DNA from: Rhizaria sp. SCN 62-66
Lineage: Eukaryota
Direction of reading: 5' to 3'
Assembly (NCBI GenBank): GCA_001724265.1
Contig: MEDY01000054.1
Coordinates: 1 to 64,000, forward strand
DNA: 64,000 bases
A program made the translations under genes and the position numbers. Shown here in pieces: positions 6,001 to 56,028 of this stretch. The stretch's first letter is position 1; every line of letters starts with the position of its first letter. Below the pieces are notes generated by a model that saw only the letters and a list, made by a program, of their open reading frames with translations, had not been told where the DNA came from and searched no databases.

Positions 6001-9000
6001 GCGGGAGATCAAAGTTAGGCCGCTTGCGTTGATGCGACGTCGGCAGCCGAGGCAGAGACTGCGACGGCACCAGTGAGCGCTGGACAGTCGGCTCAGTCGC
6101 CGAAGTCTCAGTCTCCGCCTCTGTCACCGCGGCTAGGGTGCTCCCTTCGCCATCGTGACGGACACTGCGATTGTTGTTTGCGTCGGTGTGAGAGGCATGT
6201 GCAGTGGGAGGAGATAGGAGGAACGGCGTCGAAAACGAGGGGGGCAACGCAGGGGCAGCCGCGGCCGTCCCAGAAAAAGAACCATGTGCTTCGGTGTTAC
6301 TCGCGTTGCTGCTTGTGGTTGCAACAGGCTCCGCAGCAGGTGTGTGCGTGCTGTTTGCGGTGTCAGCAGTGAATGAGTCAAACTGATCGTCGTTATAGTC
6401 ATCGTCTTCAGGCGCTGCATTGAGACCAGCTCCTACAGCGTCCGCGTCAGCAGAAACAGTATGATCGCTCACCGGCGCAGCCGTCACGAGAGTCGTCGTG
6501 GCATCACTGCTCGGCTCAGGAACAGCGTCCTCGCTTACAAGCTTCGCGTCCGTCGTATTTGCACCAGCTTCAGGCTCTGCATTCACATCCTCGGGCACAG
6601 TGCGAGCTTCAGTCACAGTCTCCGTGTCAGGCGCAGCTGCAGTCACTGCCGCGGCCGTGTTGCTGGCCTCAACCAAAGCCTCAGAAGAAGAAAATTGAGT
6701 CGCCAAGTTGGTTGCAATAGCAGTTTCATTTGACTCAACCGGTACTGGCGCAACATTCGCAAAAGCGCACTGTTCTATAGCAGCAGCAAAATCGTTGTTC
6801 TCAGAGGCCTCAGCCTCAGCCTTGGCATTTATAGCCTCTGCCTCCGCCTTCGCCTTTGCTTCAGCCTCCGCCTTTGCAATAGCCTCGGCGTCCGCCTTGG
6901 CTTTCGCTTCAGCTTCGGCGTCTGCGGTAGCCTTGGCTTTAGCGGCCGCCGCTGCAGCCATCGCGGCCGCTAACGGGCCCGCGGGGGGCACAATGCGCGC
7001 AGTGACGCTCACGTTGGCAGCCGCGGAGGCAGAAACGGGCTCCACAAGCAGCGATTGCGCAGCAGTGCCTGCGGCGCTTTTGTTGTTATGGGAAGAAGCG
7101 AGCGGCAATGACAGGGGCGGGACGTGAGTCTTGTTTACTGTCACTGCACTCGGAGACTGCGGTTGTCGTGAAGTGACCGGAATGGATGCATTGAGACCGG
7201 AACCGCGAACGCTGTCAGCACTCCCGTCAGTGGCTTTGTTCCCTCCTTTGCGTTTGCCTTTGCCGCTCTTCGCAGCCGTCGCGCTTTTAGAAGCGGACGC
7301 GGAGGTATTTACACCGACACCCTTAGACAGCAGCGCCTGGTCCAGTTCCCGCTCCAGTGCAGTCTCCAGGTCGACCGCGCTCTCACCGCCACCGACATCA
7401 CCCGCGCTACTCCGCCTCTGCTGACGCTGCGTGTTCTGCAGTTGCTTCGGGGGTCTGATGCCTTTGACGCCACTGCCAGTCCCCGCAGCCGCCAGCGCAG
7501 CCTGCAGCGTCACCGGCGCAGCGGCCACCGCATGCGCAGACGGCAGCGCGGTGAGCTTCGACAGCGCGGCCGCGGCCACGGCTGCAGAGCAAGTCCGACC
7601 GGCGCCTGTCGCCGCAGCAGCGGCGGCGGCGTGCGAGGAAGCGGCGCTGGCGGTAGCGAGCGCGAGCGTGGCCGCGGGCAGAGGCGCTGCGGCGACGGCG
7701 CTGGCGCGGGTCCGCGTGCTCTAAGCACCAGTACCAACTGTACCGACACTCGAGTTACTAATGCTGCTGCTTGCGGTTCCGATGGCATTCTTGTTCGTCG
7801 TCACAACGCCTTTGATGTTGTTTGTCTTTACATTTGTGTTTGTGGTGGGGGTAAGGGCTGCGGCAAGCTTAGTCACGGCCATCGCGCCCGCGTACGATGA
7901 CGGCAGCTGTGGCTCAACGTGGTGGTAAGGCAGATGCTCATCAGTCCCCGCTTCTTTCCTATGGAGTCCCGCTTCAAGCGCGAGCGACGCGCGCAGAGCT
8001 GCGTCGGTGGCACTGGCGAGTACGTGTGGGTCCAGTGGTCCCGCAGCGGCGACAGCCGCGTTGATGAGCTCCGCGCCGTGCAAAGACGGACGCCGCCGCC
8101 TCCGCTGCTGCTGCTGCTGTTGCAGGACGTTATCGTAGTTACTGTCATCGCTGTCGTCGTCACTGCCAGCATCGTCACCGCTTTTCCCGCTGCCTTGGCC
8201 CTTGCTTTTGCCTTGCTTCTGCTTCTGTGCTGCGGCGACAGCCTTGGTGGCCTCAGCCTTTTCCTTCTCAAGCTGCTTGCGCCGCTGCTCTTGCTCCCAA
8301 AGCCGTTTGGCTTTCGCGGCCGACACGGGCGGCGGCGGCGGCGGCGGCGTCGGCGGCCGCGGCGGCACCGGTTTCGGCCGTTGCGCCGGCGTGTACATCG
8401 CGGTCGGCACCGACGAATCCGCCGTGATGAGCGGGCTGCGGTGCCGCTGCAGTGTGCCAGCCACGCCGGGCACTTTGATCACCGCCGCGCGGGCCGTCGC
8501 GCGATCCTACGCGGCCTTGGCGCGCGATTCGACCACGAATGCGGGTAAATGCATGGACTCTTCTTGTCGGGCCGCCTGGGCCTGGGCGCGCGCGCTGTCG
8601 GCCGCCACAGAGGCGGCGAGCGCGGGGGAACGCAGCAGCGGGCGGCGCGCCGGTAGTAGCAACGGTGACCGCGAAGCAGCCGCAGGCGTCGTCTCTATCA
8701 TTGTCGTCTTCATCGCAGTGCGTTTACATGTGGAGCCTGATGCCGAGGATGAAGATGAGTCTGTGACAGTCTCGGCGCCGCGGCTGCCAGACGCAGCGGA
8801 CTGCGGCTGTGGAAGCGGCAGCGCCAGCGGCGGCGGTTGCGACTGCGATGTTAAGGCGGAGGGACCGTCGGTAGTCACACGCGAGTACGCATCGCGGAAA
8901 ACGGCCGACATTGAAGGCGGCGGAGACGCAGCGCGGGAAGGCGGGGACGGCGTCAGCGGCGACATGGCGCGACTGGCGCGCGCATCATCACCGTCGGAAG

Positions 9001-9169
9001 AGGACGCAGAAGGTGAGAGCGGCACCAGAGGCACGCGGCGCGCGTGCGGGCCGGCCGCGGAGGGCGGGGGCGGCTGCAGTGGCGCCGAGGGGGGCGAGAG
9101 GAGGGAGCGGGACGGGGGCGCCGAGGATGCGGCGCTGGGAGGCCCGTGCGCCGCAGGGGCGTAGGACAT
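2..9169 (-). CDS. Giant low-complexity (Ala/Ser/Thr/Pro-rich) hypothetical protein, >=3,056 codons, 3' end beyond the window; two in-frame TAG codons (8507-8509, 7721-7723)
   Basis: ATG at 9169 (MSYAPAAHGPP). Track ORFs 8507..9280 and 7721..8482 share one frame and are separated only by a TAG. The same frame continues past the second TAG, and no stop-terminated ORF is listed in it down to the window edge (spot checks also found no stop). Contains poly-Pro and a charged AKAEAEA helix (~6790-6960). No recognisable domain. Confidence 0.8.
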
Positions 9170-9876
9170 TATTACAGGCAGACGCTGCAAGGTGTGCTGC
9201 CAAGGTTCTGTTCGAAAACAAGCACTGGGGCTGAGGGGAGCATTAAGGGAAGAGAGAGAGGCGTGGGTGAGAAGAGGCAAAACAAGAGCGAGGATAACGG
9301 GGCCAGATATAAGAATTACAAATTTTAATTTACAAATTACAAACTAATAACAACAGAATACATGAGAACCACGCAGACATTTGAAGTGACGGTTTTTGCA
9401 TTTCAGTATATGACAGCAAATGAACGCGATTCCTTGCAAACCGTTTTTCGCTTGTTGCAGTTTGTCTGCGGTCGCTCCCCTAGTTGCCATGGAACACAAG
9501 CTTCAAGTCGCATTTATATCGCGTTTTTCAAGTCAAACAATTTACCATGAGGCTGAGACGTTGATAAACAAAACCCTAAACCACTTTGTATGTTACATCG
9601 CGTGATAATTTTTAGTGACCTCCATATCGCATTGTTAATGCTCCACTACACATGCTGAGGGCAACGATATAACGAGAACCATTTTGTTTGAAGATACAAC
9701 ATAAGATCACATGTGGCATTAAAATATCAAAGTCTATTATAACAATCAAGCGACAATGCCGCGCTATTATCACGTTAATTTCCCAAACTAAGTACGTTCG
9801 TCAGTGTGGGAGTGTTCCATAGTATTCGAACTCTTGCTCCAGAGCTGGTTGAGAGGTCGCGCCAACACGAAACTGC

Positions 9877-12800
9877 TTACTTTGCGGCGACCGCGAGCTC
9901 GAACCTGACCGGCAGCCCCCACACCACAAGCGCCGCGCCGTTGAGATACGGCAGCTTGCACTGCGCCCGACCCGACAGCACGACCGACAGGAGATCGTGC
10001 GAGTACACCATCGTCTTCTTGACCGCTGCAGCGCCAGCCACGGACGCTGCGGCGGGGGCTTTGAGACCGAGGCGGACGCCCACAGTCGTTACCACCGCGG
10101 GAGGCAGTTCGGTGACTGTGGCAGCACTCACGCGACTGGGCTTACGCGGGGCTGAAAGGCGCGAGGAGATCAGTGTCGGATCTGTTGGAGGCGGCGCGTT
10201 GTAACCGGAAACAGTCTCAACCATCTCTGTGATATGTAAAAAAGCAAGTGCCATACAGAAAGCAGTGGTGTGAGTAGGTGATAGAAAGTAGAAACAAGGC
10301 TTTTTCATGTTGTTTAGAGTGTGTAGATGTGTAGCTGTAACGAGGACGTACCTTGGCAAACAGCGTCCAAATCCCTGTCGGTCACTTCCCACAAATTGCC
10401 CACAACCGCGGGCGCGCCTGCCTGCACGTATGACATCACCATGCCAACTGGCGGGAAGCACGCCCCCGGCGCCACGGGCCGCAGTGCGCCTGAAGAGCAG
10501 CCCATCAGCCACACAACGGCACGCGCGCGGGCTGCGGCGACTGAGGCTGACGTGATGTACTGCTCGCCGCCGTTGTGGCCGCAGTAGACGACGAGGGAGC
10601 TCTGCGCAAGCTCCTGCAGCAACAAACTGCGGAAATATACAAAAGTTAGAGGAAATCTTAGATGTGAGAGCTTCGAATAAAAAATGTGACATGTGATGAT
10701 ACAGACTTATTTCGCACGTATTATGAGTATATTGTCGACGTACTTAGGCGTGGGTTTGGTCGCCGTAATGCCGCGCCAGCCCTTGAGGGCCTCAAAGAAC
10801 GGCTGCAGCCGCGCCTGCGTCTTGGGTAGATCGCTTCCCGGGTTCAAAATGTAGTAGGCCTGCTGTGGTGACACACTGACGCCGACCGTGTCCGCGTTCG
10901 CAGCCGCACTGGCCAGCCCGACTAGGTTGACGTTCGCCGCCGCCGCTGCCGCCGCAGTCGCCGCCGCGGCCGCCGCCGCAGGTTCCCCCGCGCGCGCCGC
11001 CGCCGCCGCCGCAGCGATCGCTGCTCCAGCCGCGCGGACACGCACGAGGCGCACTGCGCGGTCGGCACCTAGCGCCGCGAGCGTGTGCATGAGCGTGGGC
11101 ATGCGGGCGACGCGCTGAGGACCGAAGAACTCGCCGCCGCACCGCGCGACGTGCACGTGCGTGTGCGAGCGGGACGCGCCTGTCGCGCGCGCGCGCACGG
11201 GAGTCGCAGCTGCAGCAGCCTTTGCGCTGACACGGCCGCCCTTCTTGGCGGCAGCGGGCGCGGGGGTGTCAGAGTCGGCGTTCGCGGCGGCGTCGCTCGT
11301 TGAGAGAACGGGCGGCATGAAGTGTTCGACTGGCCGGAGTACGGGAAGCGACTCGAAGGGCAGAGTGGTGAGCTCGTTGCTCACCGTCAGCACCACAGGC
11401 CGCGACACACGGGCGCCGGTGCAGCCGCTCACAGTGGCACTCGCGCTTGCAGCGGAGCTGTTGGCGGCCGCAGCGGCCATGACAGCAGCGACGTCGCTCG
11501 CAGCGGTCTCGATCGCGCTCAGCAGCTGCGCAAAGGCGGCGACTGTGGGACTCACCGCGGCCCCTGCGTTAAGCGCGGCTTCGAACGCAGCAGTACTGCC
11601 GGCGGCGGTCGCCGCAGCATCAGCGCGCGTGTAGTCGAACACATTGCCCGCCAGAGCGGTAAGATCCACAGGCGGCGTCACCAGACACACTGGCCCGTCA
11701 ACAGCAGCAGAAGAAGCAGCCGCGGCTGCAGCAGCAGCAGCGGCCTTGGTGCCGGCGCGGGGCTTTTTGGCGGGCGCAGGAGCAGCAGTGTCGGCGTCCG
11801 AAACTGCCGCGGCGGAGCGGCCCTTGCGAGCTTTGACAGCAGGCGCAGCCGCGGCATCAGGCTCCGCAGCGTCGGCCTCAACAACGGCGGCGCCGCGGCG
11901 AGGGGCGGCGCGCGAACGTGGCTTCGCAGCAGCGGGCTCATCCTCAGTATCCTCAGTCGCTGACACAATCACACTTGCAGTTACTGTGCTGATGCTCAAT
12001 TGCGCAGTCGTGAGCGCAGTGATGACCGCAGTGACGGACGCCAGAGGCGTCAGCGGCGAGGGCGCAAGGCCCAGCAGCCACGCCACAGCACCTGGCAGTG
12101 AATACGCACCGACGCCGGGCGCGGGCGGCGGCGCGGGCAAGTCTCCGCCGCTCGCAGCCTCGCCACTGGCTGCCGCGGCTGCCGCTGCGGATGCGGCTGT
12201 GGCCGTGGCGAGCGCGGTTAGTTCGTCACTGCTGGGTGAAAAGGCGGGGGCGTGTGCAGCAGCGTAGAGAGGAGAGCAGAGCAGAGTCAGAAGCAGAGTC
12301 TCGACGTGCAGAATGAGCGGCGACGGCGCACTGGCGTTCTCAACAGTGAAAGCCTTGCTCTTGCCCTTGCTCGCGGCCGTTGTTGTCGTAACGGCAGCAG
12401 TCGTCGGATGCCAGGGCGCGGGAATAGCACAGCCAAGTGAAACAGCGCCACGGAGACGAGCTCGGAGATCGCTCGTATTGTCAGCGAGCACGGAAGCACA
12501 GCGCCTGAGCTTCGCAGCGGCCGCAGGTGCCGTGGGGAGACCGCGCAGCACGCCGGCCCAAGGACCGAAAAAAGCCCGCTCAGCGTGCGTCAGCAGCGAC
12601 ATAAGCGAGAACTCGATCTCGAAGCGTGTTGTCCACCACTGCGCGACCGCGTCAGGCGAATCCGCACCGGGGGCCGCCTTCTGCGAACGCTCGTTTTGCT
12701 CCAGTAGAGTTGACAAAGAGGACATGACGGAGGCTAAGCTGTGCTGCGACGCGTTACTGTCGCGCGACTCAGCAGAGCCAGCGCTGGGCAAAAGCGGCAG

Positions 12801-15800
12801 TGTGAGTGCAAAGCCAGAGGGTACCATGTGCGCAGTGCAAGCGTCTTCACTAGTCGTGTCAGTGGTCACTGGAGATATGCTCTGGAGAGTGACTTGATTC
12901 AGCAAGTGCTCAGAGCGCGCCTTTTCGCCCTCGTCATTTTCAGTGTCGCCGTCTTCGGCGTCATTGATTTGATGCACTGGCTCGAGAGTGAGACGCGAGA
13001 CTGAAAGCGCGCGCGCCCCAGGAGCGACTGTGAGCGCAACCGCCGCCATCCAAGGCGGCAATAACCGCTGCAGCAGCCCCTCAGAATCAACGCCGGCTGC
13101 GGATGCGTTCAGATCGCTGTCAGAATTGACCACCACATTAAGAGAGGACGACATTGCGAACATAGTTGGCGCGAGGCGGTGTAAGTACCCCCTTAGACTC
13201 CGCGGAGGCGCCATCACGGCCATTTGCACGCGCGCAGCCTCCGCAGCTACACCCGGACCAGAAGCCTCCCCACTTGCATTCTTGCCACAGGGACTGGCAG
13301 AAGACAGTGAGAGCGACGCCATCGCGGCCGCCAGCGTCTCATCCGCGCTCTTGCCCGCAGTCACAACGCCCGCCGCAGTGGCCGCAGCAGTGAGGGCGGC
13401 GGAGTCCGCGGCCAGCAGCGCGCGCTTGTCAGCCGCGGCGGCTGGGTTGAGCGACAGATGCCACAGTGCGGCCGCCGCGACAGCCGCGGCACATCCGCAC
13501 GCAGCATCCTCCGCGTCATCACCCGCGGCGCCGTCAGCGCTCTGCTGCTGCTGCGGCATGTGCACGCTCGCCTGCGCTGCGGCGGCCGCGATCGCCCCCG
13601 AGGCCTCGGGATCAAGGCACCCGTGCGCCGCGCGCAAAGCCCACGCGAGCGCGAGCATGCGGCGCGCGGCCGACAGCACTGCGCCCGCGGCTGCAGCAGT
13701 CTCCACCGCGTTGGTGACGCTGGAGCTGGCTGTAGAGGCAAGGAGGGCGGAGAGCGCGGCGACGGCGCCCGGCGACGGCAGCAATATGCCCGCACCGTGC
13801 GCCGCCAGAGTCGGCGGGCGCAGCTGCAGATGGTCGTCTTCGCTTACGATGCGACTCGCAGTGCCGCCGTTTGCGTCTGGAGTGGCGACCGCGGTTAGCC
13901 AGCGAGCAGTGAGCACGAACGCATCCGCGGCTGCAGAGGCAGTGTCTGCGCTGGTGATGCCGGCATCAGCGCCAGCACACAGATGAACATCACTGCTGCC
14001 ACAGGTGTTATTGTCGCTTTCCCCCGTGGACAGGCAGGGACACGCTGCACTGCGCTGACTGGCCAGTGCCGCTCTCGCCGCAGACTTCTTACCTCCTGAC
14101 TTGCTCGCGATAGTGGCGCGGGGACGGAAATGCGACGGTGCAAGCCAGTCACAGTCGTTGTCACTGGCGCAGTCGCCGGCGCTGGCGGTTGCGGCGGCTT
14201 CAGCGGTCGCAGCGACGAGCGCGGCTGCGCCGGTGCTGGCGATCGCACGGGACAACAATTGCACTGCGGTCAGCGACGTTGCGGCGGTGTTGCCCGCGTT
14301 GTTGTTGTTGTTATTGTTGTGAGAAAGAGTGAGAAACAGCGACGCCCTGTCGACGGCTACACGACCCGCTAAGCTTCCGCTAACACTCGCAGTTGCGTTT
14401 GAACCGTCACACTCGGTCTCCACTTCAGCAGCCGCCTTTGCAGCCTTCGTCGCCGCAGCCTTACTCTTGGGAGCGGCCTTCGCTTTACCTTTCACTGCGG
14501 CCTTCTCGTCACAGTCAGCCTCGTCACTATCAGCCGCAGCAGTGAGTTTGCTGCCACTTGTCAACGTCTCAGCAGTGTCCCAGCCCTTAAGAGCCCACAA
14601 CGTGAGCATAGTGCTGTCCAGTCCGATCTCAAGTGAAGCAGCGGTCACAGCAGCAGCTGCGAAGGGCTTGCGCGCGCTGGCAGTCGCCTTTTTGCCGCCC
14701 TTACCCTTTGCGGCAGCAGGGGCGGGCGCTGCCGTCTCTGCGTTGTTGCTTGGTGACGAAAACAAAGAGACGATGTCGACAAGCTCAATCTCACCAACAA
14801 CGTCTGCAGCTGTTGCGCTGTTGCCACTGGCCAGCAGAGCCTGCGTCGCCGCGTCACTCGCCAGCGCCGCGGCCAGCAGAGCAGGCGCCAGTGCAAGCCC
14901 CGCAGCGCCAACGCCACCGGTACTTTCACTCTCCGCGAACTGCACAGGCTGCCGCAGCGCCTCGTTGGCCGCCAACGCAGCCTCCGCCTCCAGCTCATCG
15001 CTGCTACCACATCCGGTATTGGCTGAGGCTGCTGCTGCGGCAGCGCGTGCAAGCGGTGCGCGCGCGCTCGTAGTCAGCGTAACCGCAGTGGAGACGCGTC
15101 CCAGCGCGCGCGCCGCCGCCGCCGCCGCCGTGGCCGTGCGCAGCAGCAGCGGCGGAGACCGCAGGCGCGCTGCGAGCTGCGCCAGTTCCGCGGCGTAGGC
15201 AATTACAGCCTTGCCGCTGCCGCCCGCAGTGTGCGCGGTCAGCAGGCGCAGCAGACAGGAGAGTGTGCGGCGAAGCGAGAGGTGGCAGTTGCTGGCCTTC
15301 TCGAGCGCTTTCTCGGACGAGACCGTGCTCGCGGCGGAAGCAGCGGCTGCCGCGGCTGCCGCCAGCGCTGCCCCGGCGGCTGCGGCGACGGCGGCGTCGT
15401 TAGTGAGGTCGGGGACCGCGGTCGCGATGACTCCAGCGGCGACGCCGGCCGCGGTGTCGGTGAGCAGCAGCGGCGTCATTGCCGCACCGGGGACTGCAAC
15501 CGTGCCGCCGCCCGCAGTCACAGCGTCATCAGCCGACGATAAGTCAGCAGTCGTTGCGGTGAGAGTGGCGGCGGGCAGCACCGCGGTGGCTTCGGCGAGA
15601 TAGAGCTTCAGCAGCGACGCCCAAGGCCTGCTGGCAAACGCCAGCAGCGCCGCGGCAGCAGCGGCCGCCGAGCCCGTTGCCGCCGCGGTCGCAGCGTAGG
15701 CGGAGAGCGTGGGGATAGTTGTCCCAGCGCCGGCGGCGGCCACCAGCGCCAGCGCCGCAGAGACCGAAGCAGGCGAGGCGTCGACGGCAGCGCGCTCGGC

Positions 15801-18800
15801 GAGTGTGGCGGTCATCACCCACTCAGCCGGGCTCTTCTTGCCCGCAGCTGCGGCGATCGCCGCGGAGTCGGCAGCGGCACCAGCAGCGGCGGCGGCAGGA
15901 GGTAGACCTAGGCCCTGGACGAGTGCTAGCAGAGCGTGGAGACACAGCGTCGCTTCGGCGCGGGCCCGCAAACGCACCGCACTGACACTCTCCACTGAGC
16001 TCCCAGTCACAGCCACCGCCGCGGTCTCAGTTGCAGTTGCTGAGGACGTGACGGGCGTCGGGAGCGCGAGACAACAGCGTGCGGCGGCAAGCGCGAGTCG
16101 CCACGGGGCCCAGCCGGCCGCCGCTGTGGCCGCGGCACGCACGCCCGGAGCGCAGAACACCGGCGTCGGCAGCAGTGCGGGGGCGGCGGCGTGCGCGGCC
16201 GCTGCGGGAAGCAGTGGCCCGCCGCCAGTCATACTTGCACTCGCAGGGGCTGCGGCGACGTGGGCGCGCGCGAGAGAAGGGGAGACTGTGAGCAAACGAG
16301 CGCTGTGGCGCAGTAGCGACTGCGAAGGGTCGCCTACAATGGCGCTCGCACTGTCAGCGTTGTCGCTACTCCTAGTGGTGCAGATGAGGGTGGCGAGAGC
16401 GGCCAGAGTCGACGGCGCGCTTTGCATGCTGCTGCCACCGCTGTACAGGGAGCGTGAAAAACGCGGCATCAGCGCGATCGCAGCCGTGGCAACGCGCATC
16501 GTCCACTGTAAGCTGTGGAACACACGCACTGCAGCAGCAGACGTTGGCGATGATACAGTCGAATCTGCGCCGTCACTGTCAGCCTCCGCTACGGTTGTAG
16601 CCTTCTTGCCACGGCCTGTCTTGGCGGCGGCGGGCTTACCAGTCCGCGACTGCGACTGTGTCACAGCGGAACCGGAGTCTGACTGAGGAAGCTGCGTGTG
16701 CGCAGTAGCTGTAGCGCACCCGTCTGAGAGGTACTTAGACGCCGTGAACGCACTTAGAGTCGGTGCAATACACTGGCCCGCGCACGCAAGCGTCGCTGCC
16801 ACTGTTCCAAGCGCCCCCGTGCCCGAGTTTGAATCGGAAACAAACGCGTTTGTCGAGTCATTGCTGCTATAAGGGGCAGCAGCGCGTGCCTCCGCAAGCG
16901 AAGTGAGCACAGGCAACAACAAGAGCGCCGAGGGGCACCGCGACGGGTCGAGACTGACCGGCAACGGCACTGCAGCAGCGGCAGCGTCGCAGTCGCTGTT
17001 ATAGAGCGACGCGGGGCCCGCGACGGAGGCGGCGGCGGCGTCAACAGCGCGGGGCACCCATGACTGGGAGCACGGCACTGCAGGCAGCACTGGGGCCAGT
17101 AACGACTCCAGCACAGACGAGTCACCGCTAGCAGAGCCAGGGCTAGAGCTAGAGTTTGAGCTCGAGTTCGAGTTAGAACCGAGGGTATTGCTGTGACCGT
17201 TGCTGTGGATAGAACAGGAGCAAGGAGGGATAAGGCCCGCGCGCACCCACAACGCAGCGTCGTGACTGCTCAAAATCGCACTACAGGCGCTCACATCTTC
17301 CTCATCACTTTCCGTGTCTAAGCGGTTACAATTGCTTTGAGACAGTGAGTCTGAGTCCCAGGCCTTTTTGACGTGCCCACGCCAACACCCGGCGCTGCCC
17401 ACGCACGCCGCCTCAGCGCCCACCGCGGCTGCCACGGCCACAGCGCTCTCGACGCTCCGCGGCAGCACCGCAACAGTCGCCGTCGAGGGACCGTGAGCAC
17501 CACCGGTTCCGTGGGTGCCCGCGGTGTGGGTGACCGTGAGCACGTCGACCGCGTGCACAGTGTGCGCAGCCACAGCCACGCCAGCGGAGAATGCGCGCGC
17601 GAGCAACGTCAACACAGCGGTTTCAAGCCCGCGGAGCCCGAGTGAGCGCAGCCGGTCGGCGAGAGCCGTCAGAGCGGCGTATGCGTCATTCGCCAGTGAA
17701 AGCAGGGTCGGCAGCGCGGCAGCGGCAACAGTGGCCTTCCTAGGGCCACTTTGGCTGTGATCAGCCGCAGCAGCAGCTGTGGAGTTGTTGTTTGTGTTGG
17801 TATACATGAAACAGGCAGGCACCATGTACACCGTATCTTTACCCACACGGGCATCGTTCTTGTTGTTGCCGTGAGCGGATGTCGCAGCAGTGGCGTTGGT
17901 GTTGACGGCAGGGGCCCACGCCAGCGCGGCACGCAACCGGGGGTCGCCGAGCACGCGCTGCCACAGCGCCAGCGCGGCGGGCGCGCCGCGGGCCGTGTTG
18001 GCCGCCAGCGCAGTCGCTACCGCATCCGCCGTCGCGGCCGCAGCCGCCAGGGCAGCGCTGAGCGGGGGCGCAGAGGCCGCAGCAGAATTAACAACGACAG
18101 CGGATTCACTATCGCCGTCATCCTCGTCGTCGTCTTCAGAAGCGTCGTCGTCGGCATCAGTAGCTTCATCGTGAGCTTCGTTAGTATTGTTTACGACGGG
18201 GATATGGCGCGAGGCGTCGTCAGCGCTGTGCAACAACGCGCGCGTCGCCACAGTCGCTGCCTGCGCCAGCAGAACAAGCGACGCCAGCGACGGCAAAGCC
18301 CCGCCATCATTACCACTGTTCGCATCATTCGCTTTAGACGTGTTCGCAGTGCTCGAGGCGGAGGCAGCGAGGGTTTGGTACGTGCCGACAGCTTCGGCGA
18401 GCAATGGCGCGCCTGCAGCGGGGTCGGCGGCCGCAGCGCCCCTGCCTGCGGCTTCCAGCGCTTTTGCTTTGTGAACCAAGCACGCGCGCGCCTTAGCGGT
18501 GTCCTTAACAGCAGTGAACACAGCTGCAGCGTTGGCGAATGAGGCGGCAGCGTCCTTGAAGCGACGTTTGCCGTGGAAGTAGACGGCGACGGCGTGGTAC
18601 GCGCGCGCAACAAGCGGAAACCCGGCCGCGGGGCTGGTGGTGGCGAGCGCGTCAGGCGTGAGAGCGGTGAGCAAGGAAACGCACTGGGGGAGCATGGCCG
18701 AGTCTGAGGCATCGAGACTTGCGGTCGGGATAGAAGTCAAGTGCGTGTGCAGCGAGCTGAGCACGGAGCGGGCCTTGACCGCGCTGCGCTCAAGCGCAGC

Positions 18801-18818
18801 GGATGCGGCGGCGGACAT
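9877..18818 (-). CDS. ESP1: Separase (peptidase C50), ~2,899 aa; exons 18818-10744, 10626-10352, 10226-9877
   Basis: Spliced translation shows the C50 motifs in order: WWTTRFEIE...FFGPWAGVL, LTTLPFESLPVL, VARMPTL, YYILNPGSDLPKTQ, YCGHNGGEQY (catalytic His), LMGCSSG (catalytic Cys), VVGNLWEVTDRDLD, CKLPYLNGAALVVWGLP. Two GTACGT...CAG introns restore the frame. Ends in TAA. Confidence 0.95.
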
Positions 18819-19500
18819 TGCGGAGGTCGCTGGGAGAGGCAGACAGGCACGGAGCAATACCGGTTTATGTGTGTTGGTGGAGAGGCTGGGGCAGAGCCGT
18901 TGAGGGACACAAGTGCAGGGACTGGAGTATGTAGCAAGTGTTACTCAGGAATACTTTGCAAAATGTCTATGAAAGTGTTAAATACAAACGCATTTCGTAA
19001 TGTTGAGGCGTGTTGATATGATGACATGTCGGGAGAGCGAGGTCGGAAGCGAAGCCAGGGACAGGTGCGCAGAGCCGTGGGGTGCTAGTATTGTATGAGC
19101 TGCTGAGGACCGCAGCCAAGGGCTTAAGATGCAGAAATTAAATTAGAAAAACAAAACTAAATATGACATCGACAGGCCACTATTATATAGCTATACACGG
19201 AGGTTTGGCGCTCCATTACACGGTAAAGCTCTGGCCCGCCCGAAGAGCTGTTGGCCGTCGAACCGTGGTCGCCGACCCAAATACAGGGGTGATTTCGAGC
19301 AAGTCCAGCGACAAATTCTGATCGTTAATGCTGATTTAGCTTACATTTCCACCTATCATCTCGCCTCACCTATTTTATTGTATTTGTCACACTCTGTTTC
19401 ACTGAAGGCATCAGCTACTACAGACCACACAGTGCACCGAGACTTCATCCACCGTAATACTCTTGGCGCTTCTCTCCGCTCCCAGGGCTGTCGCACCACC

Positions 19501-20328
19501 ATGGACGCGATCACCCAACTACAGATGTACACCTTCACCTTGTCCTAGATAATTGCGACTGTGATCTCGTTCATTCACACCAACGGCCGTCTCACCCCTG
19601 CACAGGCGCGCGCCATCGACCACCTCGTCATCACAACCGCCGCCAACACTTCCGCAAACAACAGCGCCAACAACACCAGCAGCGCGAGCACCGCGTCGAC
19701 GGGCCCTGTGCTGGTGACGGCCAAGGGCACGCGCATTCCTCCGCTGACCAGGGAAGGCGTGGAACCCTTTCTCAACTTCACACGTCACCTCACCGAGCTT
19801 TGCGCCCACTACACTGAGCATTCCCGCGAAATCGCCGCTCTCGCCGCCGCGCTGCCCGACACGCTCCCCACGGAGGCGGTCACGATCGAGCTGCTGGCCG
19901 AGGCCAAGCGCGACGGCGCACGCGCGGTGGCGCGGCTGCGGCGCGCTGAGAAACGCGCGCAGTACTACCAAGAGAAGCTGAGGCAGGCGACCGCGACTGT
20001 GGCCGATGTGATGCTTGGAGTACCTACGACTGCGCATGCCGCGGCGGAACCTGTGGGGGTACCCGTGGGTGCCCACGGTCAGTTGGACGCCACGGGGGCG
20101 GAGAAGTGGGCGCAGCGGCACCGGAAGCGGCTGGCGGCGGGTGATGACAGCGTTGCTGACTATACACGCATCAAAAGCACGAGCAACCAACACACCAGCA
20201 ACACTAATAAGAACACAAACAACACGTCTATCAGCATCATCAACGGCAAGGATAGTGAGAACGCGAGCAATGACGCGAACACGGGTGTCGCCAGTGCAAT
20301 GACAGGGCAGCAGGGCATGTCTGACTAA
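19501..20328 (+). CDS. MED21: Mediator complex subunit 21 (Srb7), 275 aa, with an in-frame TAG at codon 16 (19546-19548)
   Basis: Begins MDAITQLQ (family signature MxDxLTQLQ). Later EIAALAAALPD resembles DIDVLIDSLP and is followed by a coiled coil. ATG 19501 is in frame with track ORF 19561..20328 across a single TAG. Ends in TAA. Confidence 0.85.
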
Positions 20329-20676
20329 CTTTGTTTCTGTTTGGTGACTGATAACTGTGACTGCAAAAAAAAAGAACTCGGCTAGATTAGAGATCTCGGC
20401 TAATGCTTTTTAGTTAACACAGTCAGAGGATGTCAGTATCACACCGGCTCAGTTAAAGCGTCCGAGATAACATTTACATAGTTATTTTTATATACATTTT
20501 TTGTACTACTCCATTCACGCCGAATTTTCCGTTGGGCAACAGGACAATAAACACTGGTTTATTCACTGAGTGTTATTTGGCCTCAAATGTTTCAGAATGA
20601 CATCAAAGCCACAACAAAAGCCATTAAATAGAGTAAATATCACTATATATGCGTCGATTTTCCACTTTGAAGTGTT

Positions 20677-21943: not shown

Positions 21944-21961
21944 ATCGGCTTATATCCTAAA
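21944..21961 (+). promoter_or_regulatory. Candidate TATA-like core promoter motif ATCGGCTTATATCCTAAA upstream of the Ariadne gene
   Basis: 16/18 match to 51503-51520. The two copies lie 156 and 158 nt before an ATG. Confidence 0.4.
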
Positions 21962-22099
21962 ATCGCGCAATCTGTGTCTTCATTTTCGCCCTGTCCTCCC
22001 CACAGCCCACCCAACTCACCCACAACAAGCAAGCCCTCCGCTTCGCCTCGTCCAGCACACCCAGTTTCCCCCACGCGCCCGCCCCACCGTCTGCCCGCG

Positions 22100-25000: not shown

Positions 25001-26300
25001 GGCCGACTGGAACACCCACCAGGGCTCGTACTTCGATTGTAGCAGTTATAACCAAGGTACACTTGATTCCAAGGCCGTCAATGAGCGCAATGAGAAAGAG
25101 GCCCAGACCCGCCGCATGCAAAAGCTGTACTTCTTCTTCTCCCGCTTCGAGGCCAACAAGTCCACGGCCGCCAGTGTCTCGCAGATGTACAAGAAGGCGC
25201 GCGCAGCCGGGCTCGTTCAAGGCACGGACTCCCTCAATGGCGTTGCTAATACGAGTCACAGTTCGTCGTTGCATAGTGTGGCGATGAGTGACGGCACGGA
25301 CAGCCCCTATAATCATCGCAGCGACAGCCCCGCCCCCACTGGCCCTGGCGCGTCAGGGCTCGATATGGAAGACGGAAGCCGGACGCCTCGTGGCACGGCA
25401 ACGCACTCGGCGGCAGCGCAGGCACGTGATAATGCGCTCCTTGCGACTGCGTTTGAAAATATTATCGAGGCGCGCACGTTCCTGCAATGGTCGTTTGCAT
25501 TTGCGTATTTCCTCAAGCCCACTGGGTTCAAGGAGCTCTTTGAGGCTCACCAGGCCAAGTACGTTTCCTGTTCATATTTGTTTAACAAAAACAAAACTTC
25601 GATTTCATTCACGTTTATCTCTGCCTGGTTTCATTTTGACGATCTATCGCTCACTTTTTTATTGTTTATTTTTTGCAAATTTGAATTTCGCTTCGAACTG
25701 CACTTCTATTCCAGGCTGTCTCTGGAGGCCGAGACGACGACGGAGATCCTGTCCCAGTGCAACGGCAAATACTCCGATATCACCGACTCCCCCTCCCTCC
25801 GCGAGCGTCTCATGCGCAGCTCACAGTCCCTCCGCAAATTCACCCGCGCTGTGTCTTCCTCAATCGTCGACAACGACGTGACTGCACTGGTTGATTACGA
25901 GACGGGCGACGGCGGCATGAAGAGCTGGTCGTGCACGCTGTGTCGACACGTGCATATCGTCGCGGCGCGCACTGACCTCTTCGGCGGCGCCGCCGTCTCC
26001 GCGGCCACCGAGACCTCTCTGGCACAGGCCAAGGCGGCGGGCGCGGACGCAAACGAGATCGCCGTGCTCCGGATGATTGCTGCTGACGCCGAGCAGCAGC
26101 AGTCGGGCCAATCTTCCCAATCCTCCCAGCAACAGGGGAAGGCGAAGGCGGCCGGCGCTAAGGCCGCTGCGGGCAGTGCGAAGGACAAGCTGAATGGGAG
26201 CGATATGGCGCAGTGGAGCAAGAAGGTGGAGTTTTGCTCCAAGTGTGACGCGTGTCGGGTGCATTCGGAGCAGGACTGCCGTGTGTGCAAGAAACGGTGA
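22100..26300 (+). CDS. Ariadne-family RBR E3 ubiquitin ligase, ~1,251 aa; exons 22100-24475, 24625-24743, 24884-25558, 25715-26300
   Basis: Acidic N-terminal region, UBA-like LLRRYDWDAPRL, RING1 (LACGHAMCTEHW), IBR (CSNPEC...CDCGTLSCLQC...HVPCPC), RING2 ([33 protein letters not shown]) and Ariadne domain (IIEARTFLQWSFAFAYFL...LFEAHQ). Three introns keep the frame. Ends in TGA. Confidence 0.93.
24531..24558 (+). repeat. (TTTTG)n microsatellite in Ariadne intron 1
   Basis: Five perfect TTTTG units followed by TTT. Confidence 0.85.
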
Positions 26301-36500: not shown

Positions 36501-39500
36501 CCGCGCTGGCGCCCGCGGCCGCAGTCGCCGTCGCCGCCGCCAACGCGTTCCTGCCCTGGGCGACCGAGGGCGCGGGCGCCGCGGGCGCTGGCACTGCCGG
36601 TTCGCTCGGCATCGGCTCACTCTGGGCGTCTGCCTCCGGTGGCGCGGCCGCGGGCGGCGGCGGTGGTTCCGACGCCACCGCGGCAGGCACCGGCGCGGCC
36701 GCGGGCTCCGCGACAGGCGGCGCCACGGGCGCGGGCGGCAGCGGCAGCAGCAGTGGCAACAGCGGCGGCGCCTCGTCCTCCGTCTCCGGCTCCGGCCCCG
36801 GCAGCGGGCTCTCCGGCGGCGCGCTGGCGGTGTTTGGCGCCCGCGCGCGCGGCGTCTCCGGTCTCCCACTGACCGGCGTCTCTGCGTCCGCGCGACGCGT
36901 CAACTACTTCGCGCACGGCATTAACATCACGTTGTACGCGCACGCGGCGGACTTCACGGCCGCGCGCGGTCGCTTCCGCGGCTGGGCTGTCAGCGCGTTG
37001 AGCTCGCCACTTGCTGGTGTATCGCCCGCCGTTGTCTCAACGCTCTCCAACGCGCTTGCGCCGTCGTCGTCTCCGTACGCGGCGGCCGCAGCGGGCTCCA
37101 CTGCGTCGCCTTCGGCCGCGGCCGCAGCGGCTGCGCTGAGCGCAGCAGTCGCTGCCGCCGCAGCCGCGTCTGGCTTCGGCGCCGGCGCCTTCTCCGCCGC
37201 GGCCGCTGCGGGCGGCACCGGTGTTTCCGCCGCTGCCGCCATGGCCGCAGCTACCGCGCTTGTTTCCGACAGCGATTCCGCCGTCGCCGCCGCGGCCACG
37301 GCCGCTGTGGCGTCCGCGCTGGCCGCGTCAGGCCGGTTCTCGTCCTCTGCCGCCACCGCGGCCGCCGCAGCCGCGTCCGGCGGCGGCGCGACTCTCAACG
37401 GCGGCACCGCGGCAGTAATCGCCGCCGCCACCGCCACTGTCGCGGGTCCCTCAGCGTGCACGTTGGCCTCCTCCGCGACCGGCGTGGGCACAGGCGCGGG
37501 CACGACGCTCGACGGCAGCGCGGGCGCCGAGGCCGCGGCGCTGGCGTCGACGGTGATCCCCACGGACCCGCTGCTCGCGGTGCTGCGCGCGCAGCTTGAG
37601 GGCTCGATTGACGACGCTGTGTTCAACGCGAAGCTTAAGGACTGCGGTATCTTGCAAACGAAGGATGTGTCGCAGTGGAATTTCCCACTGATCTTGCACT
37701 TGCTTGAGACGGTGTTTCCGGTCAATCACGCGCTGTTTGTCGCCACGCTGACCAAGACCAAGTTTTTCAAGCGTCTGTTGTCGATGCTGCGGCCTGAGAA
37801 GCGCATGTTCTCAGACTTGGAGTGGGCTCCGATGCACTTCATCCTCGGCAAGGTTGCCGCACAGCTCTTCACTGTGCTGCTGATGTACGCTGAGGGACGC
37901 GAGTACGTCTTCTTCACCCAGCTCGTCGAGCTCATCTCCGGTCTGCTTATCGAGGAAATGCAGCGCTCAGCGGCACTGGCGCAGATGCAGGCTTCGGCCC
38001 GCGCGCGCGCTGCTGCGGCCGCCGCTGCGGCCGCCGCCGCTGCTGCTGCCGCCGCGGCTGCTGCTGCAAACTCCGGCTACGGTGGCGGCGTTTCGACCCA
38101 GCAGCAAATCGCGCTGCCCCGCTACACTGGCGGTCCGTCTCCGTCGGTGTCGCTGTCTTCGGCGCCCGTTGCAGGGAGCGGCGCGAATCACAGCTCGTCG
38201 CCCGCTTTCACGCCCGCGACCGCGGCGCCTGCGTCTCCTCTGGTGGCATCGTCCAAGCCGCGCTCGTTCTTGTCGCGACTGTCGTTCGCCACGCTCCGCG
38301 GCTCCTCCGCGTCCACCGCTGCCGCTGCCGCCGCTGCCGCCAACGGAAACGTCACCGGCCGCGCCACCGTGTCTGCTGCACCGCAGTCAATCACGAACGC
38401 GAGCTTCTTCGACTCGTTCGAGCCCATCAACGCGCCGCCGCCGCCGCCTCCGCTGCCCGGAATGAGCGGCTCTGTCAGCGCCAGCGGTGCCACCGGTGTC
38501 AGCGGCAACACCGCTGCGCCGTTCTCGCTCGCCTCGCTGGCGCATCTTAACCCGACACGCGCCTCTGTCGCGCCCGCATCGTACGACGCGTACTGGTCCA
38601 CGGGCGCCGCGGCGGCTTCCGCTGCCGCCGGCTCCGGCGCCGGTGGGCAGTACACCTCAGCGCTCGCGCAGTCCTTCCTGGTCCCGGCCCCGCTGGACCT
38701 TCCCCTCGCGGGCGCGGCGGCGGGCGCGGCGGTCACCGCGGCCGCCGCCGCCAACGCAGTCGCGGCCGCGGGCGCGGGACTCGTACCGTATACTGCGGGC
38801 GCGACCGGCGGTGCCGGCGGCGCGGGCGCGGACGGTAGCGGCGGTGCGGGCGCCGGCGCTGGCGCGGGCGGAGACGCTGGCACGATTAATGGCAGCTCTG
38901 TGTTTGCGCATTTCACACATATTTCGTCGACGATTAAGACGATGCGCAAGTTCCGTCCCTTTTCGCGCCAGTTTGTCACCACCAAGATGGCCCGCGAGTA
39001 CATTACGCTGCTCGGCATTCTTACTTCTTCACACGTACGTTCCGCAACATCAATCGGCTTACATTTTAATATAATTTTCTGCTACTTTTAATATCTTGAG
39101 TTTTTTAATTCAATCTCACGTTTTTAACTCATGTTAACTATTGTTTTCGTATGTTTTAGCACGGCACCGCGCTGCTGCACGCGCACGGCGTCTTCGCCCG
39201 CCTGCCCGTGTTCGCTCTGACACGCTCCAAGCTGTACCTGCTGCGCGCTTTCGCTCACTCGCTCGACTTCGAGGCCTGCGCCCCGGCCCGCGCCGTGCTC
39301 GAGTCGTGGATCCTCATCGGCTCCGATGACGCCCGCCGCGAGCTCTTGCCGCTATTGTCGCATCTCTCGATCACGCTTGCGCCGTGCTCCACCGCGGCCT
39401 CGCCTTCGGGCGCGGCGTTTACGACCCCCGGTCTCGGCCCCGGCGCCGGCGCAGCGGGCGCGACGGGCGCGGCCGGGGCGTTCGCGCGTTACTCGGTCGG

Positions 39501-41625: not shown

Positions 41626-41660
<35 letters not shown>

Positions 41661-51660: not shown

Positions 51661-54600
51661 ATGTCGGACGGATTTTCGACTACATCGTCGCTTGGGGCTG
51701 GCTTGTTTGACGCTGATCTTGCTCGCTGGCGCTCTGGCGGCACCGGTCTTCCCACCGCCTCCGTACGGTCTGCCACAACGCCGCCCTCACCAGCGACACC
51801 TGGCAGCGTTGCCGCAGCTGCTGTCGACTTCATTTCCCCATCGCAGGTCCCGATTACAGTCACCAGCAGCAGCCCTCACTGGACACACCACATTGCCCTC
51901 GCAGTCCCGTTCTCACCCGCCCCGGCGGCTGGAGCCCTCTTCTCGTCTCCAGGCGCTGCCTCCGCTGTCTCCGCTGCTTCCGCATACAGCGATGACCCCT
52001 CAGTGCACTCCCTCGTCTCTGCTACGCCTTCGGCCACGTCTTCTGCGGCAGCGCCGGCTCCCGCGCGCTATGAGGAGTGCCTTTCGTTTCCCAACAGCAG
52101 CAGCCGCGCCAGGCTCGCCGTCCCTCCAGGCGCCCTCTCTTCGACCACCATCTCAACGGCAAGCCACACTGCGAGTCCGCCGCCAGCCCCGGTCGCTGCG
52201 CTGCAGTCGGCGCCGCCCGTTTCTGCTGCGTTGCTGGCGCACGCGCTGACGCCCTCTAAGGCTGGGACCGCGAGCGACGCGATCGCTGCCATGTACGCCC
52301 GCATCGCAGCTGCTGCTGCTTCGGCGACGGCGAACAGTGCTACTGCGCGCGCCGCTGAGGGCTCAGGCTCAGGGTCGGGGTCGGTCACGGGGGGATCAAA
52401 CTCTGCCGCGAGCTCTAGTATCGGCTCGCGCGTTGTATCTCCAGCGGTGTATGCGGCGTCCGCAGTGCCCGATGCAGCTGTTAACGCACCCGCTGCGACT
52501 GCAACTGTGCCTTCTGTCTCCGTCCAAGCTCCAGTTGCAGCACCTGCGTCCGCATCGGCATCAGTGTCGTCCGCCTCGTCGTTTCATTCGCCGACGCAGT
52601 TGCAGCCACAGCTGCAGGCTCTGTTTCGGCTTTCTACTGCTGCTGCAGCTGCGCCGACTGTGAGCCGAGGCGAGAGTGCTGATGCGCCGTTGTCGCTCCC
52701 AAAGTTCCAGTTTCAGTCGCAAGCACCACCGCAGCAGCAGCAGCCGCAGCAGCATCAACAGCCCCCGGTGCAATCGCAGTCTCAGTCGCCGACGCACGCG
52801 CAGCCGTCTCACTTGCGCTCGCTGTCGCAGCCTCGGCTGCCCTTCGTTGCATCTGCCTCCATCAAGCAACAGGAACAGGACTTGACGCCGTCGCCGCAAG
52901 AGACTGCGACTGGTGCGGGCAGTGACACGTTGCAGCTCCATCTGCGCACTGCGCCAGTGTTGCCTGCGGCAGTGTCCGAAGCGCTGAACGCGACCTACGA
53001 TCACAGCTTCGCTCACAGTCATGCTCACAGTCACTCACCGTCGACTGAGACGGCGGCGGTCGGCTCGACACAGAGCCACTTCGACAATCACGAGCTCATG
53101 GCAACGACCCGCACTGGATTTGCTCACCACGCTTACACTCATAGCGACGAGGCCGCCGCTCCTTGTGCTGCTGTTGATAACGTTAAAGCCAATTCTAGTG
53201 CCGTGCGGGCAGATCTCCATGAGACTGGGTTCGCGGCTTCTGCGACTGGTTTCCAGACCAACGTGCAGCCGCGACTGCTCACGGTCACTTCCCTGCTTAA
53301 CACATACGGCCCACCCACCGCTGCGGCACATCTACCGCAGAATAACAATGTTTCGCAAACGACCTCGTCGTCGTCTTTGTCCGAATCATCAGCGTCGTCT
53401 TTGTCGTCTCTGGCACCGCTCTCGGACTCCGCATCTGCAGCCTCTGACTCTGGCCCTGCCGCAGCGCTGGTGGCACCGCTGACGTCGGCATCAGCGACAC
53501 TTGCCGAGGCCTATTGTCTTAGTGCAACGAGCCGCTCTGCCACGTCAAACAATATCACGCAAACCAGCGTTGCACCTGGCATGAACCGTAGTTTGGCCCA
53601 CTTACATGTGCACAATGACAATATCGCGAACAACCATCACTCGGTTGGCGCGGCGTACACCCCTGGCTTTCCTTCGCTCCCTGACTCAGTTGCTGATTCC
53701 GCTCTTCTTGCGGCCGCTGCGTAGCCGCAGCCGCAATCGCGATCACAACAGAGACTGGGCTCCGCGGCCGCGGCGGCTGGGTTTGCGCGCAGCGTGTTTG
53801 TCCCACTTACGGCTTCCGCGTCTGCGCTCCTGAGTGCGGCCGACGAAGCCCTTGAGCGCGCGCTCTTCCATGGTCTCTACGCGATCACCGACGACGACAA
53901 CAACAACGCCAACGAGCACGGGGTTGACGACGACGTGGACGATGACGGCGGCTACACTGACGTCGCCGACGCCGCCGATCTTGCGTCGTCTTACCCTCTC
54001 GTCGCGGCGACCTCGGCTGCGGACATGGCTGCTGCCCTGCGCCAAAGCGCGCTCGCGGCCCGCAGCCACCTGCGCTCTCTGTCGCGCGCGCACCGCCGCC
54101 GCGCACTGGCCGCCGCGCGCGCATGGCTGGACACGACTGCCCGCGCCGCGCTTGAGAACGAGCGCGCGCGCGCCGCCAACGCGCTCACCGCCGCGCTGGC
54201 CGCCGCGGAGGCGACCGCGCGCGAACAGACACGCGCACAGTGCAGCGAGGTCGTCGCAGCATGGGACGCGCACGGTGCGGCAGCGCGTGGGCAGTTGGTC
54301 GCGGACTGGGCGCGGCGCGGGCCGGAGCTGCTCGCCGCGACGACCGAGGCGAAACGCGCGGAGTGGACGCAGCGGCTCGCGCAGCTCGACGACGCGCTCC
54401 GTAGCGAAGCCACGGCCGCTGTGGCCCGTGCCAGCGCCGAGGCAGAGGCCGAGGGCGAGGCGCGCGCGCTGGCGCTGCGGACCGAGTGGGCGCGGGACTG
54501 TGAGCAGGCCACCGCGGCCGTGCGCGCTGAGGCGGAGGCCAAGACGGAGCGGTATGCGGCCGAGCTTGCCGAGGCGCTGGGCGCGCATGCGACGGCGGCG

Positions 54601-56028
54601 CGGGAGCGCGCGGCGACCGCTGCGGAGGCCGAGGGCGCGCGCCTGCTGGCCGAGGCTGAGGCGGCTGCGCGTGAGGAGACCGCCGCGGCGGCCGCGATCG
54701 TCCGCGCCGACGCTGCCACGCGTTTTGCAGCCGCCGCGCGCGCTCTGGAGGAGCACGCTGCGAGCGAGCGCTTGGCCGCGCGCGCTGCCGCCGCTGCGGA
54801 GGCCGCTGCTGAGGGCCAGGAGCAGCTGCGACAGCGTCTAGTCGTGCTGCGCGCGCGCGCCGATCGTGACCGCGCCGCGGCGGCCGAGGCTGCGGCGGAC
54901 GCGGCCCGCGCTGCGGCAGCGCGGGCGCAGGCCGAGGAGGAGCAGCAGCTGCAAGACGCGCTGGAGGCTGAGGCGGCGCGCGCGCGGGGCGAAGTCGAGC
55001 GCGACACGGCCGCTGAACTGGCGCGGATGCGGCTTAGCTTTAAAGCGCGGCTGGAGGAGGCCGGGCGCGCGGCGGAGGCGGCGGCGCGCGCACAGGCGCA
55101 GCGGGCGCTGAACAGTGAGCGCGCGCGGCAGGAGCTGGCGTTGTGTCAGCACGTTGCTGCACGCAAGGCGGCTGCAAGCGCGGCCGTCGTGAAAGAGCAG
55201 GAGCAGGCTGCCGCGCTCAGGGCAAGTGTTGGCGCGCATGCTAATCGCGTGAATGCAAGTTCTGTGGGCACTTGTGGTTGCGGCTGTGAGGCGACTGCTG
55301 TGCAGACGCAGAATGCTGGTCCGCAGTTACAACAGCGTTGCGCGTAGTCGCAGCCGCCACATCCTCAGTCTGTGTAGCATTGCGCAACGTTAAATGCACA
55401 TTGCTACGGTCACGCTCACAATCATCACCAGCAGGTGCACCAGCAACAGCAGCAGTCCTGCCAGCAGCAGCAACACTCATGCCCTCAGCACCACACGCCG
55501 TCCTGGTGCACTCAGCAGCAGCCGCATCAGCACCAACACTGCCACTCGCAATCTCAGCAGCCACACCCGCAAGCTCAGTATCAGCAGCGTAGCATCTAGT
55601 GTTCTCATTCACGTCAGCAACAGCAGCTGCCGCAAACTCTGCAGACTGCAATCGCCGATAGCGCAGAATGCATGCGCCCGAACTACCCGACGCAGTCTCC
55701 CGTCGCTGTCGCAATAGCCGCGGCGGCTGCAGCAGCTGCCGCCGAGGCAACTGCCAATGCGATCGGTATCTTGCCCACAGGCATCCCGTCCCGCTTCGAG
55801 ACTGTGTATCCGCGCGTCGTCACCAGCCTGACTGCCGCCGTGACTGTAGCCAACGCCGCCAACGCAGCGACGAACAGTCGCTCTGCGAGGACTGAAGTGG
55901 TATCGAAACCGACTGTGGCAATGTCAAACAACGCAGTGAGTGGTGTGAACGAGGATGATGACGACATGTATGTTGCTTTTTCGCTCCGTGGCGCGCCTTC
56001 GTTGACCAGTAGAGTGGTGATGTACTGA
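51661..56028 (+). CDS. Hypothetical protein, ~1,455 aa: Ser/Ala/Pro-rich N-terminus, Ala/Glu/Arg coiled coil, Gln/His/Cys-rich tail; four in-frame TAG (53722, 55345, 55375, 55597)
   Basis: Track ORFs 51661..53724, 53794..55347 and 55672..56028 are all in one frame. Hand translation of the gaps shows only TAG interruptions. Ends in TGA; a GTATGT near 55968 could be an unrecognised last intron. Confidence 0.78.

Follow-up and report, generated by a model that had tools for sequence, protein, structure and literature searches.

We analyzed positions 1 to 64,000 of contig MEDY01000054.1, deposited as Rhizaria sp. SCN 62-66 (this whole stretch of 64 kb is called the window below), in which seven TAG codons lie in frame inside three genes, designated P0001, Med21 and P0002. 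The GC content of the window ranges from 54 to 76% per 4-kb block, with GC-rich exons and AT-rich introns and spacers. Its proteins are of the eukaryotic nuclear type (separase, Rictor, Med21, a NEK-like protein kinase and an IBR-domain protein), and the public runs that contain this sequence are metagenomes from bioreactors, wastewater and activated sludge; the window is therefore a nuclear contig of an uncultured microbial eukaryote. The first-pass annotation, made from the letters alone, had listed seven TAG codons interrupting three genes, and we recovered all of them at the same coordinates and in the same frames (Table 1). Two more TAGs (9344, minus strand, and 19144, plus strand) are located in AT-rich leaders upstream of ATGs and were not counted. 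The annotation had also claimed that no TAA or TGA occurs inside some 18,500 codons, and neither triplet was found internally in the 17,014 codons of our gene models, built at the level of open reading frames (ORFs). This zero depends on confirmed introns: the TAAs at 10707, 39089 and 58812 lie in introns, as the TGA at 24605 probably does.

Table 1. Coordinates in the window of the TAG-containing genes, the in-frame TAG codons, the introns and candidate donors, and the terminal stops.
Feature	Position	Strand	Observations
P0001 gene	2..9169	-	>3,056 codons; Ala/Ser/Gln-rich, low complexity; no Pfam family; 3' end beyond the window
TAG	8507..8509	-	Codon 221 of P0001; gene frame best on both sides; GC of next 200 nucleotides (nt) 0.77
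TAG	7721..7723	-	Codon 483 of P0001; gene frame best on both sides; GC of next 200 nt 0.79
Med21 gene	19501..20328	+	275 codons, ATG to TAA
TAG	19546..19548	+	Codon 16 of Med21; best-supported sense TAG
P0002 gene	51661..56028	+	1,455 codons, ATG to TGA; middle part Ala/Glu/Arg, coiled-coil-like
TAG	53722..53724	+	Codon 688 of P0002; frame 0 strongly positive immediately before and after; no AT-rich spacer; downstream GC 0.66
TAG	55345..55347	+	Codon 1229 of P0002; Gln/His-rich tail; coding score weak over 55261-55600
TAG	55375..55377	+	Codon 1239 of P0002
TAG	55597..55599	+	Codon 1313 of P0002; frame 0 strongly positive again from 55636
Rictor control intron	39035..39159	+	GTACGT...TTTTAG; 125 nt; AT-rich; phase 0
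Intron of gene starting at 59930	58850-58679	-	Confirmed; GTACG donor
Three kinase-gene introns	Donors 61407, 61748, 62206	+	Confirmed; AT-rich; split the kinase domain
Candidate donors	24476, 24744, 25559	+	GTACG-type
Candidate donors	10743, 10351	-	Separase region
Separase stop TAA	9877..9879	-	True terminal stop after two further exons
Rictor stop TAA	51100..51102	+	True terminal stop of two-exon gene
IBR-domain gene stop TGA	26298..26300	+	Terminal
TGA of gene starting at 59930	57962..57964	-	Terminal

The strongest of the seven sites is codon 16 of Med21. The gene matches the Pfam Med21 family with an E value of 2e-06 (28.6 bits, under the curated cut-off of 37.3), and its closest homologue (P0005) was retrieved with an E value of 2.4e-30 and 42% identity (1e-30 by BLASTP). 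An exhaustive profile search with Med21 gave eight matches at E values up to 0.001, six of which were aligned; the two omitted were the window's own truncated ORF (P0004) and a protein of 1,254 amino acids (P0011) whose match is limited to the low-complexity stretch 68-116. Residues 1 to 29 of Med21 align without gaps to all six homologues, every one of which starts with MD..(T/S)Q(L/I)Q.(Y/F), and the TAG occupies exactly one column of this alignment. The absence of gaps excludes an intron at the TAG, and a frameshift is excluded by the continuation of the frame. The Med21 profile also matches Med21 chains in the PDB (E = 0.00025), where the N-terminal stretch alone scores poorly, and a phmmer search of the PDB with Med21 alone returned chance coiled-coil matches only. 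In an AlphaFold2 model based on the seven-sequence alignment, the TAG codon falls in the middle of a predicted helix that extends from residue 3 to 28, with predicted local distance difference test (pLDDT) blocks of 73, 78 and 74 and a modest mean of 63 for the whole model. The next ATG is about 170 codons downstream of the TAG, so that termination at codon 16 would abolish Med21, and reading the TAG as sense restores the first 15 codons of the protein. Med21 thus provides an in-frame UAG at an alignable position of a conserved gene, and it is the one site of the seven that can be aligned in this way.

The same TAG is present in other assemblies. A contig from a separate Joint Genome Institute (JGI) assembly (L001) corresponds to window positions 18673-22442 with a single mismatch over 3,770 bases, and the Med21 TAG is present in it. 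Our comparison with four public runs, designated X2 to X5, covered window positions 7001-27000. A contig of X2, duplicated in X3, spans 18673-20245 with no differences, and X2 and X3 were without a differing letter throughout the region compared. The 255-amino-acid Med21 ORF that follows the TAG is recorded on six Logan/ENA contigs, and the contigs of this organism in public assemblies reach lengths of about 192 kb. Sequencing error at the Med21 TAG is excluded, and the assemblies sharing it may come from one reactor population. A metagenome-contig scan with the Med21 alignment returned only the organism's own 3.7-kb contig (the contig of P0005 lies outside that collection), and exact-pattern scans for the Med21 site in genome-contig and viral-contig collections gave no match. 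The public Med21 protein record begins at a GTG or "M" just after the TAG (255 amino acids; window 19561-20328), being truncated by standard-code gene calling.

The other six sites belong to P0001 and P0002. When TAG is read as sense, three minus-strand ORFs merge into P0001 and plus-strand ORFs into P0002. Periodicity of third-position GC (GC3) alone was too weak to call frames in these genes, so we used instead a 3-periodic second-order Markov model trained on TAG-free genes versus spacers. With this scoring, the gene frame was the best of six in the three segments of P0001 (17.4, 10.9 and 14.2 per 100 nt) as well as in the three parts of P0002 (11.7, 22.4 and 2.2 per 100 nt), and the coding score was continuous across 8507, 7721 and 53722. 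In the region 55261-55600 of P0002, frame +1 is slightly ahead for about 150 nt, and across the tail as a whole frame 0 still ranks first among the six frames. The flanks had been described in the first-pass annotation as same-frame coding sequence of unchanged composition, a description that agrees with our results, as the gene frame is best on both sides and GC stays high downstream. The frame is moreover the same on both sides of all seven TAGs, a pattern different from the stop-codon frameshifting of the Euplotes type. A minus-strand shadow ORF at 53743-55326 was considered as a gene and rejected, as it scored 16.4 versus 22.4 for plus frame 0 and its Arg/Leu/Gly-rich translation resembles the reverse complement of the real gene.

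All five confirmed introns start with GTACG, are 125 to 190 nt long, have about 25 to 40% GC and end in YAG. With such uniform donors, and AT-rich introns set in exons of 60 to 80% GC, introns can be found in this genome by composition alone. No GTACG donor with an AT-rich body was detected near any of the seven TAGs, around which the local GC is 0.43 to 0.73, and the earlier statement that intron signals are missing at these codons is upheld. A donor-like site at 7895 on the minus strand was discarded, since it would create a 175-nt intron that disrupts the reading frame and since RNA contigs span it. The control intron of Rictor is an example of a TAG that is spliced out in this organism, as its last three bases form a TAG that shares the frame of the ORF following it. 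As for transcripts, X5 is a polyA metatranscriptome and X4 its paired DNA-like run, both from a study other than that of X2. One X5 contig lies over 19388-20191, including the Med21 TAG (six differences, no gaps), and another over 7375-7848, including the TAG at 7721 (two differences, no gaps). These contigs probably represent RNA and not contaminating DNA, because the spacer 20341-21674 has no depth in X5 and is covered in X4.

The genes of the window end in the other two stops. Among the six complete genes, TAA is the terminal codon of three (separase, Med21 and Rictor) and TGA of the remaining three (the IBR gene, P0002 and the gene starting at 59930), with TAG at none. No ORF in the spacers had a positive coding score, so no TAG-terminated gene has been overlooked. 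The composition of the downstream sequence separates the two kinds of triplet: in the 200 nt after the six true stops GC is 0.29 to 0.46, versus 0.58 to 0.79 after the seven TAGs, and in P0002 it falls to 0.38 only past the TGA at 56026. The base immediately after the TAG is, for the seven sites, G, A, A, C, T, C and T and the following codons share nothing, so the TAGs have no readthrough context in common. In these genes, the two frames other than the coding one contained 122 TAG, 156 TAA and 541 TGA triplets; if the stretches were unread in the frame considered here, the probability that all seven stops would be TAG is about 0.149^7 = 1.6e-6.

Glutamine, which was the prior hypothesis, is the sole residue enriched within eight codons of the TAGs (17 versus 6.1 expected, P = 0.024, uncorrected over 20 residues). 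Glutamate is depleted there (1 versus 5.2 expected), leucine is not enriched (5 versus 7.6 expected), and in these genes glutamines have a strong tendency to occur near one another (20.6% locally versus 5% overall). The column of the Med21 alignment that holds the TAG contains D, Q, K, K, S and K in the six homologues, with D in human Med21 and E in yeast SRB7. The first-pass annotation had proposed that UAG means glutamine and that UAA and UGA remain stops; the sense reading of UAG and the retention of the two stops are well supported in the window, while the glutamine meaning is weakly favored, a best guess and not a result.

The best explanation of these data, and in our judgment a probable one, is that UAG is read as a sense codon in this organism and that UAA and UGA are kept as stops. 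The TAGs are real and in frame, they stand in coding sequence that looks unspliced, one of them in a conserved predicted helix, and genes end in TAA or TGA. Ribosomes would insert an amino acid at UAG, most probably glutamine, and would still stop at UAA and UGA. By analogy with known UAG-only codes, such decoding would need a tRNA with the anticodon CUA, reading UAG and not UAA, together with an eRF1 that recognizes UAG poorly; positions T32 and L69 of eRF1 are discussed in PMC5304391. The location of UAG, mainly in low-complexity, Gln-rich regions, would be consistent with its origin from CAG by C-to-T change.

A number of observations weigh against this explanation. All the evidence comes from a single window of 64 kb, in which a tRNA search (ARAGORN and Rfam) found no tRNA, and no Rfam RNA family was detected either; the eRF1 gene is likewise absent from the window. 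Only one of the seven TAG sites is in a protein with homologues, as P0001 and P0002 match no Pfam family and a homologue search with residues 640-1240 of P0002 found none, and the column of that single site is polar or charged and too variable to identify the amino acid. In P0002, the Gln/His/Cys-rich region 55261-55600 (plus strand) has a weak coding score and holds three TAGs within 85 codons. The X5 contigs bridge unspliced two of the seven TAGs, as judged from coverage and gaps and not from the bases at these two codons. X2 and X3, whose contig tables are identical, probably represent a single data set, and the study of X2 is that of a possible source of the window. The lack of TAG among six terminal stops is weak evidence at this sample size. 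There are 1,990 sense codons one step away from TAG, 719 from TAA and 598 from TGA (a TAG share of 1990/3307), and under a model of nonsense mutation seven TAGs out of seven have a probability of about 0.029 if all single-base changes are considered and of 0.076 with transitions only; decay by first-position C-to-T change would yield TAG in 77% of cases, for a probability of about 0.16. Usage is also uneven, as UAG is rare overall (7 in about 17,000 codons), with four in P0002 and none in either separase or Rictor, whose 7,806 codons include 221 for glutamine. If TAGs were proportional to glutamine codons, the probability of none in Rictor would be 0.026, and that of all seven falling in three genes was 0.003, a post hoc value. 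GC pressure alone is not an obvious cause of the missing TAGs of Rictor, because the ratio of TTG to CTG, which serves as an analogue of T/C at the first position, is at least as high there as in P0001.

The scarcity and unevenness of TAG fit a codon that is decoded yet still costly, or one of recent origin, and they keep alive the alternative that UAG is still mainly a stop, read through usefully by a near-cognate or weak suppressor tRNA as part of an ambiguous or incipient code that is tolerated in some genes. The absence of TAG from Rictor and separase and the position of three of the seven in a late low-complexity tail speak for such a leaky stop. We nevertheless consider it unlikely, since none of the six complete genes ends in TAG, codon 16 of the otherwise conserved Med21 would demand efficient decoding, and the seven TAGs lack a common readthrough context. 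That the TAGs represent genuine premature stops, either nonsense alleles or decaying genes that are truncated or dead, seems to us improbable. CAG, GAG and TCG are abundant here, with the consequence that random nonsense changes would mostly give TAG (60 to 77%), neither P0001 nor P0002 has a known domain or homologue, and the assemblies that share a TAG may all derive from one reactor population. The first-pass annotation had argued that C-to-T decay should also have produced TAA and TGA, a point that carries little weight because CAG (439) is far commoner than CAA (115) and CGA (17). Against premature stops, seven nonsense changes in three of about nine genes would be required, none of them TAA or TGA, while the coding signal and the frame are intact after each TAG, the 15 codons before the TAG of Med21 retain the N-terminal motif of the family, polyA RNA contigs cover the regions, and the same letters recur across samples of different years.

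The remaining possibility is that the standard code applies and that the UAGs are removed or altered in RNA, either through editing or through unusual in-frame introns that are rich in GC. Of the five confirmed introns, three do end in TAG (39157-39159, 58679-58681 and a CTCTAG acceptor near 62387), a pyrimidine-rich run precedes the TAG at 19546, and the weak coding score of 55261-55600 could be counted on the same side. This explanation appears very improbable, however, given that no GTACG donor with an AT-rich body is found near any TAG, the candidate at minus 7895 breaks the frame, RNA contigs bridge 7721 and 19546 with no gaps, and the alignment of Med21 is ungapped with the TAG as exactly one column. 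Returning to UAG as a sense codon, a more specific version would be an early or intermediate stage of reassignment in a GC-rich non-ciliate, with UAG off terminator duty, decoded, rare, concentrated in disordered, Gln-rich regions and kept out of very long genes by a continuing competition between decoding and termination. We regard this version as doubtful, if conceivable.

Codes that separate the meaning of UAG from that of UAA are rare and break the usual coupling of the two codons. According to two reports, UAG alone means glutamine in the fornicate Iotanema spirale and leucine in the insect-dwelling rhizarian exLh, where conserved leucines were aligned with 384 in-frame UAGs from 71 genes (PMC5304391), and three lineages of phyllopharyngean ciliates reassign UAG only, once to leucine and twice to glutamine, with UAA as the preferred stop and CUA-anticodon suppressor tRNAs in two genomes (PMC11687900). 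The codes with UAG as glutamine (Iotanema spirale, Hartmannula sinica and Trochilia petrani; the pattern of NCBI table 15) resemble the window in that only UAG is found in frame and UAA and UGA stop, and glutamine is also the mildly favored meaning here. UAA is reported as a frequent terminator of the phyllopharyngean ciliates, as in the window, where it ends three of six genes (PMC11687900). The difference is one of usage: the UAG-only lineages of these ciliates are described as using UAG widely as a sense codon (PMC11687900), whereas in the window it is sparse and absent from the largest genes. The codes with UAG as leucine (exLh and an uncultivated phyllopharyngean lineage) share with the window the reassignment of UAG alone and the retention of UAA as a stop (PMC5304391, PMC11687900). 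They differ from it in that the UAGs of exLh correspond to conserved leucines, and the single alignable column of the window is polar or charged, with no enrichment of leucine nearby. A sense stop is also shared with the ciliate-type code (UAA and UAG as glutamine, NCBI table 6), from which the window differs by having no internal TAA and three of six genes that end in TAA, and with the ambiguous codes involving all three stops (Condylostoma, Blastocrithidia), from which it differs in that TAA and TGA are never internal and each ends three of the six genes. A genome with 54 to 76% GC and GTACG introns of 125 to 190 nt is unlike those of ciliates.

The window shows the features of a UAG-only code that can be tested at the sequence level, namely, a UAG in frame where homologues can be aligned, and UAA and UGA that end genes and never interrupt them. 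It adds a case to the known rare reassignments of UAG alone, its unusual feature being the very sparse and uneven usage of UAG. A literature search, with most subscription journals outside it, found no report matching such an organism, and the supplements of PMC5304391 and PMC11687900 might list further taxa. An apparently independent origin would be added by one more case, in a wastewater eukaryote that is uncultured, very rich in GC and intron-bearing, and the very low usage of UAG could show the first steps of a reassignment. If the early-stage version were true, the organism would offer a chance to test in nature whether codes change by the "ambiguous intermediate" or the "codon capture" route, in a lineage without a known code change. 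On the practical side, standard gene callers truncate the genes of this organism, as in the public record of Med21.

With regard to the neighboring genes, separase was identified by its Peptidase_C50 domain (E = 4.4e-24); at 9877-10743 on the minus strand, the gene continues past the TAA at 10707 through two small introns, and the later exons encode the motif with the catalytic Cys as well as the conserved C terminus. Rictor (27557-51102, plus strand) consists of two ORFs of 3,844 and 3,964 codons joined by the intron at 39035-39159 into one gene. RICTOR_N was the sole domain detected in it (E = 1.8e-32), and a search with the N region of Rictor among longer proteins, meant to help place the organism, gave no match; two atlas look-ups with the same aim yielded only vague neighbors from Basidiomycota, diatoms or red algae. 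The product of this Rictor-like gene would exceed the usual length of Rictor proteins severalfold. The region 21974-26300 (plus strand) contains an ORF of 877 codons and another of 447 codons, the latter with a weak match to the IBR domain; they are probably exons of one gene, because GTACG donors with AT-rich sequence occur at 24476, 24744 and 25559. The NEK-like kinase gene (61076-64000, plus strand) has its kinase domain distributed over three reading frames and a long tail, rich in Asn, Gly and Ala, that extends beyond the window.

A strain diverged by about 0.5 to 1% (X4 and X5) is present in an activated-sludge study of 2025, within the region compared. Among the 21 displayed strain differences in or next to modelled genes, 10 were synonymous, 10 non-synonymous and one non-coding, numbers that are powerless for detecting selection downstream of the TAGs. 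The strain also shows small indels in the spacers, e.g., nine bases inserted after 9735 and three after 9582, and an in-frame deletion of three bases at 18124 in separase.

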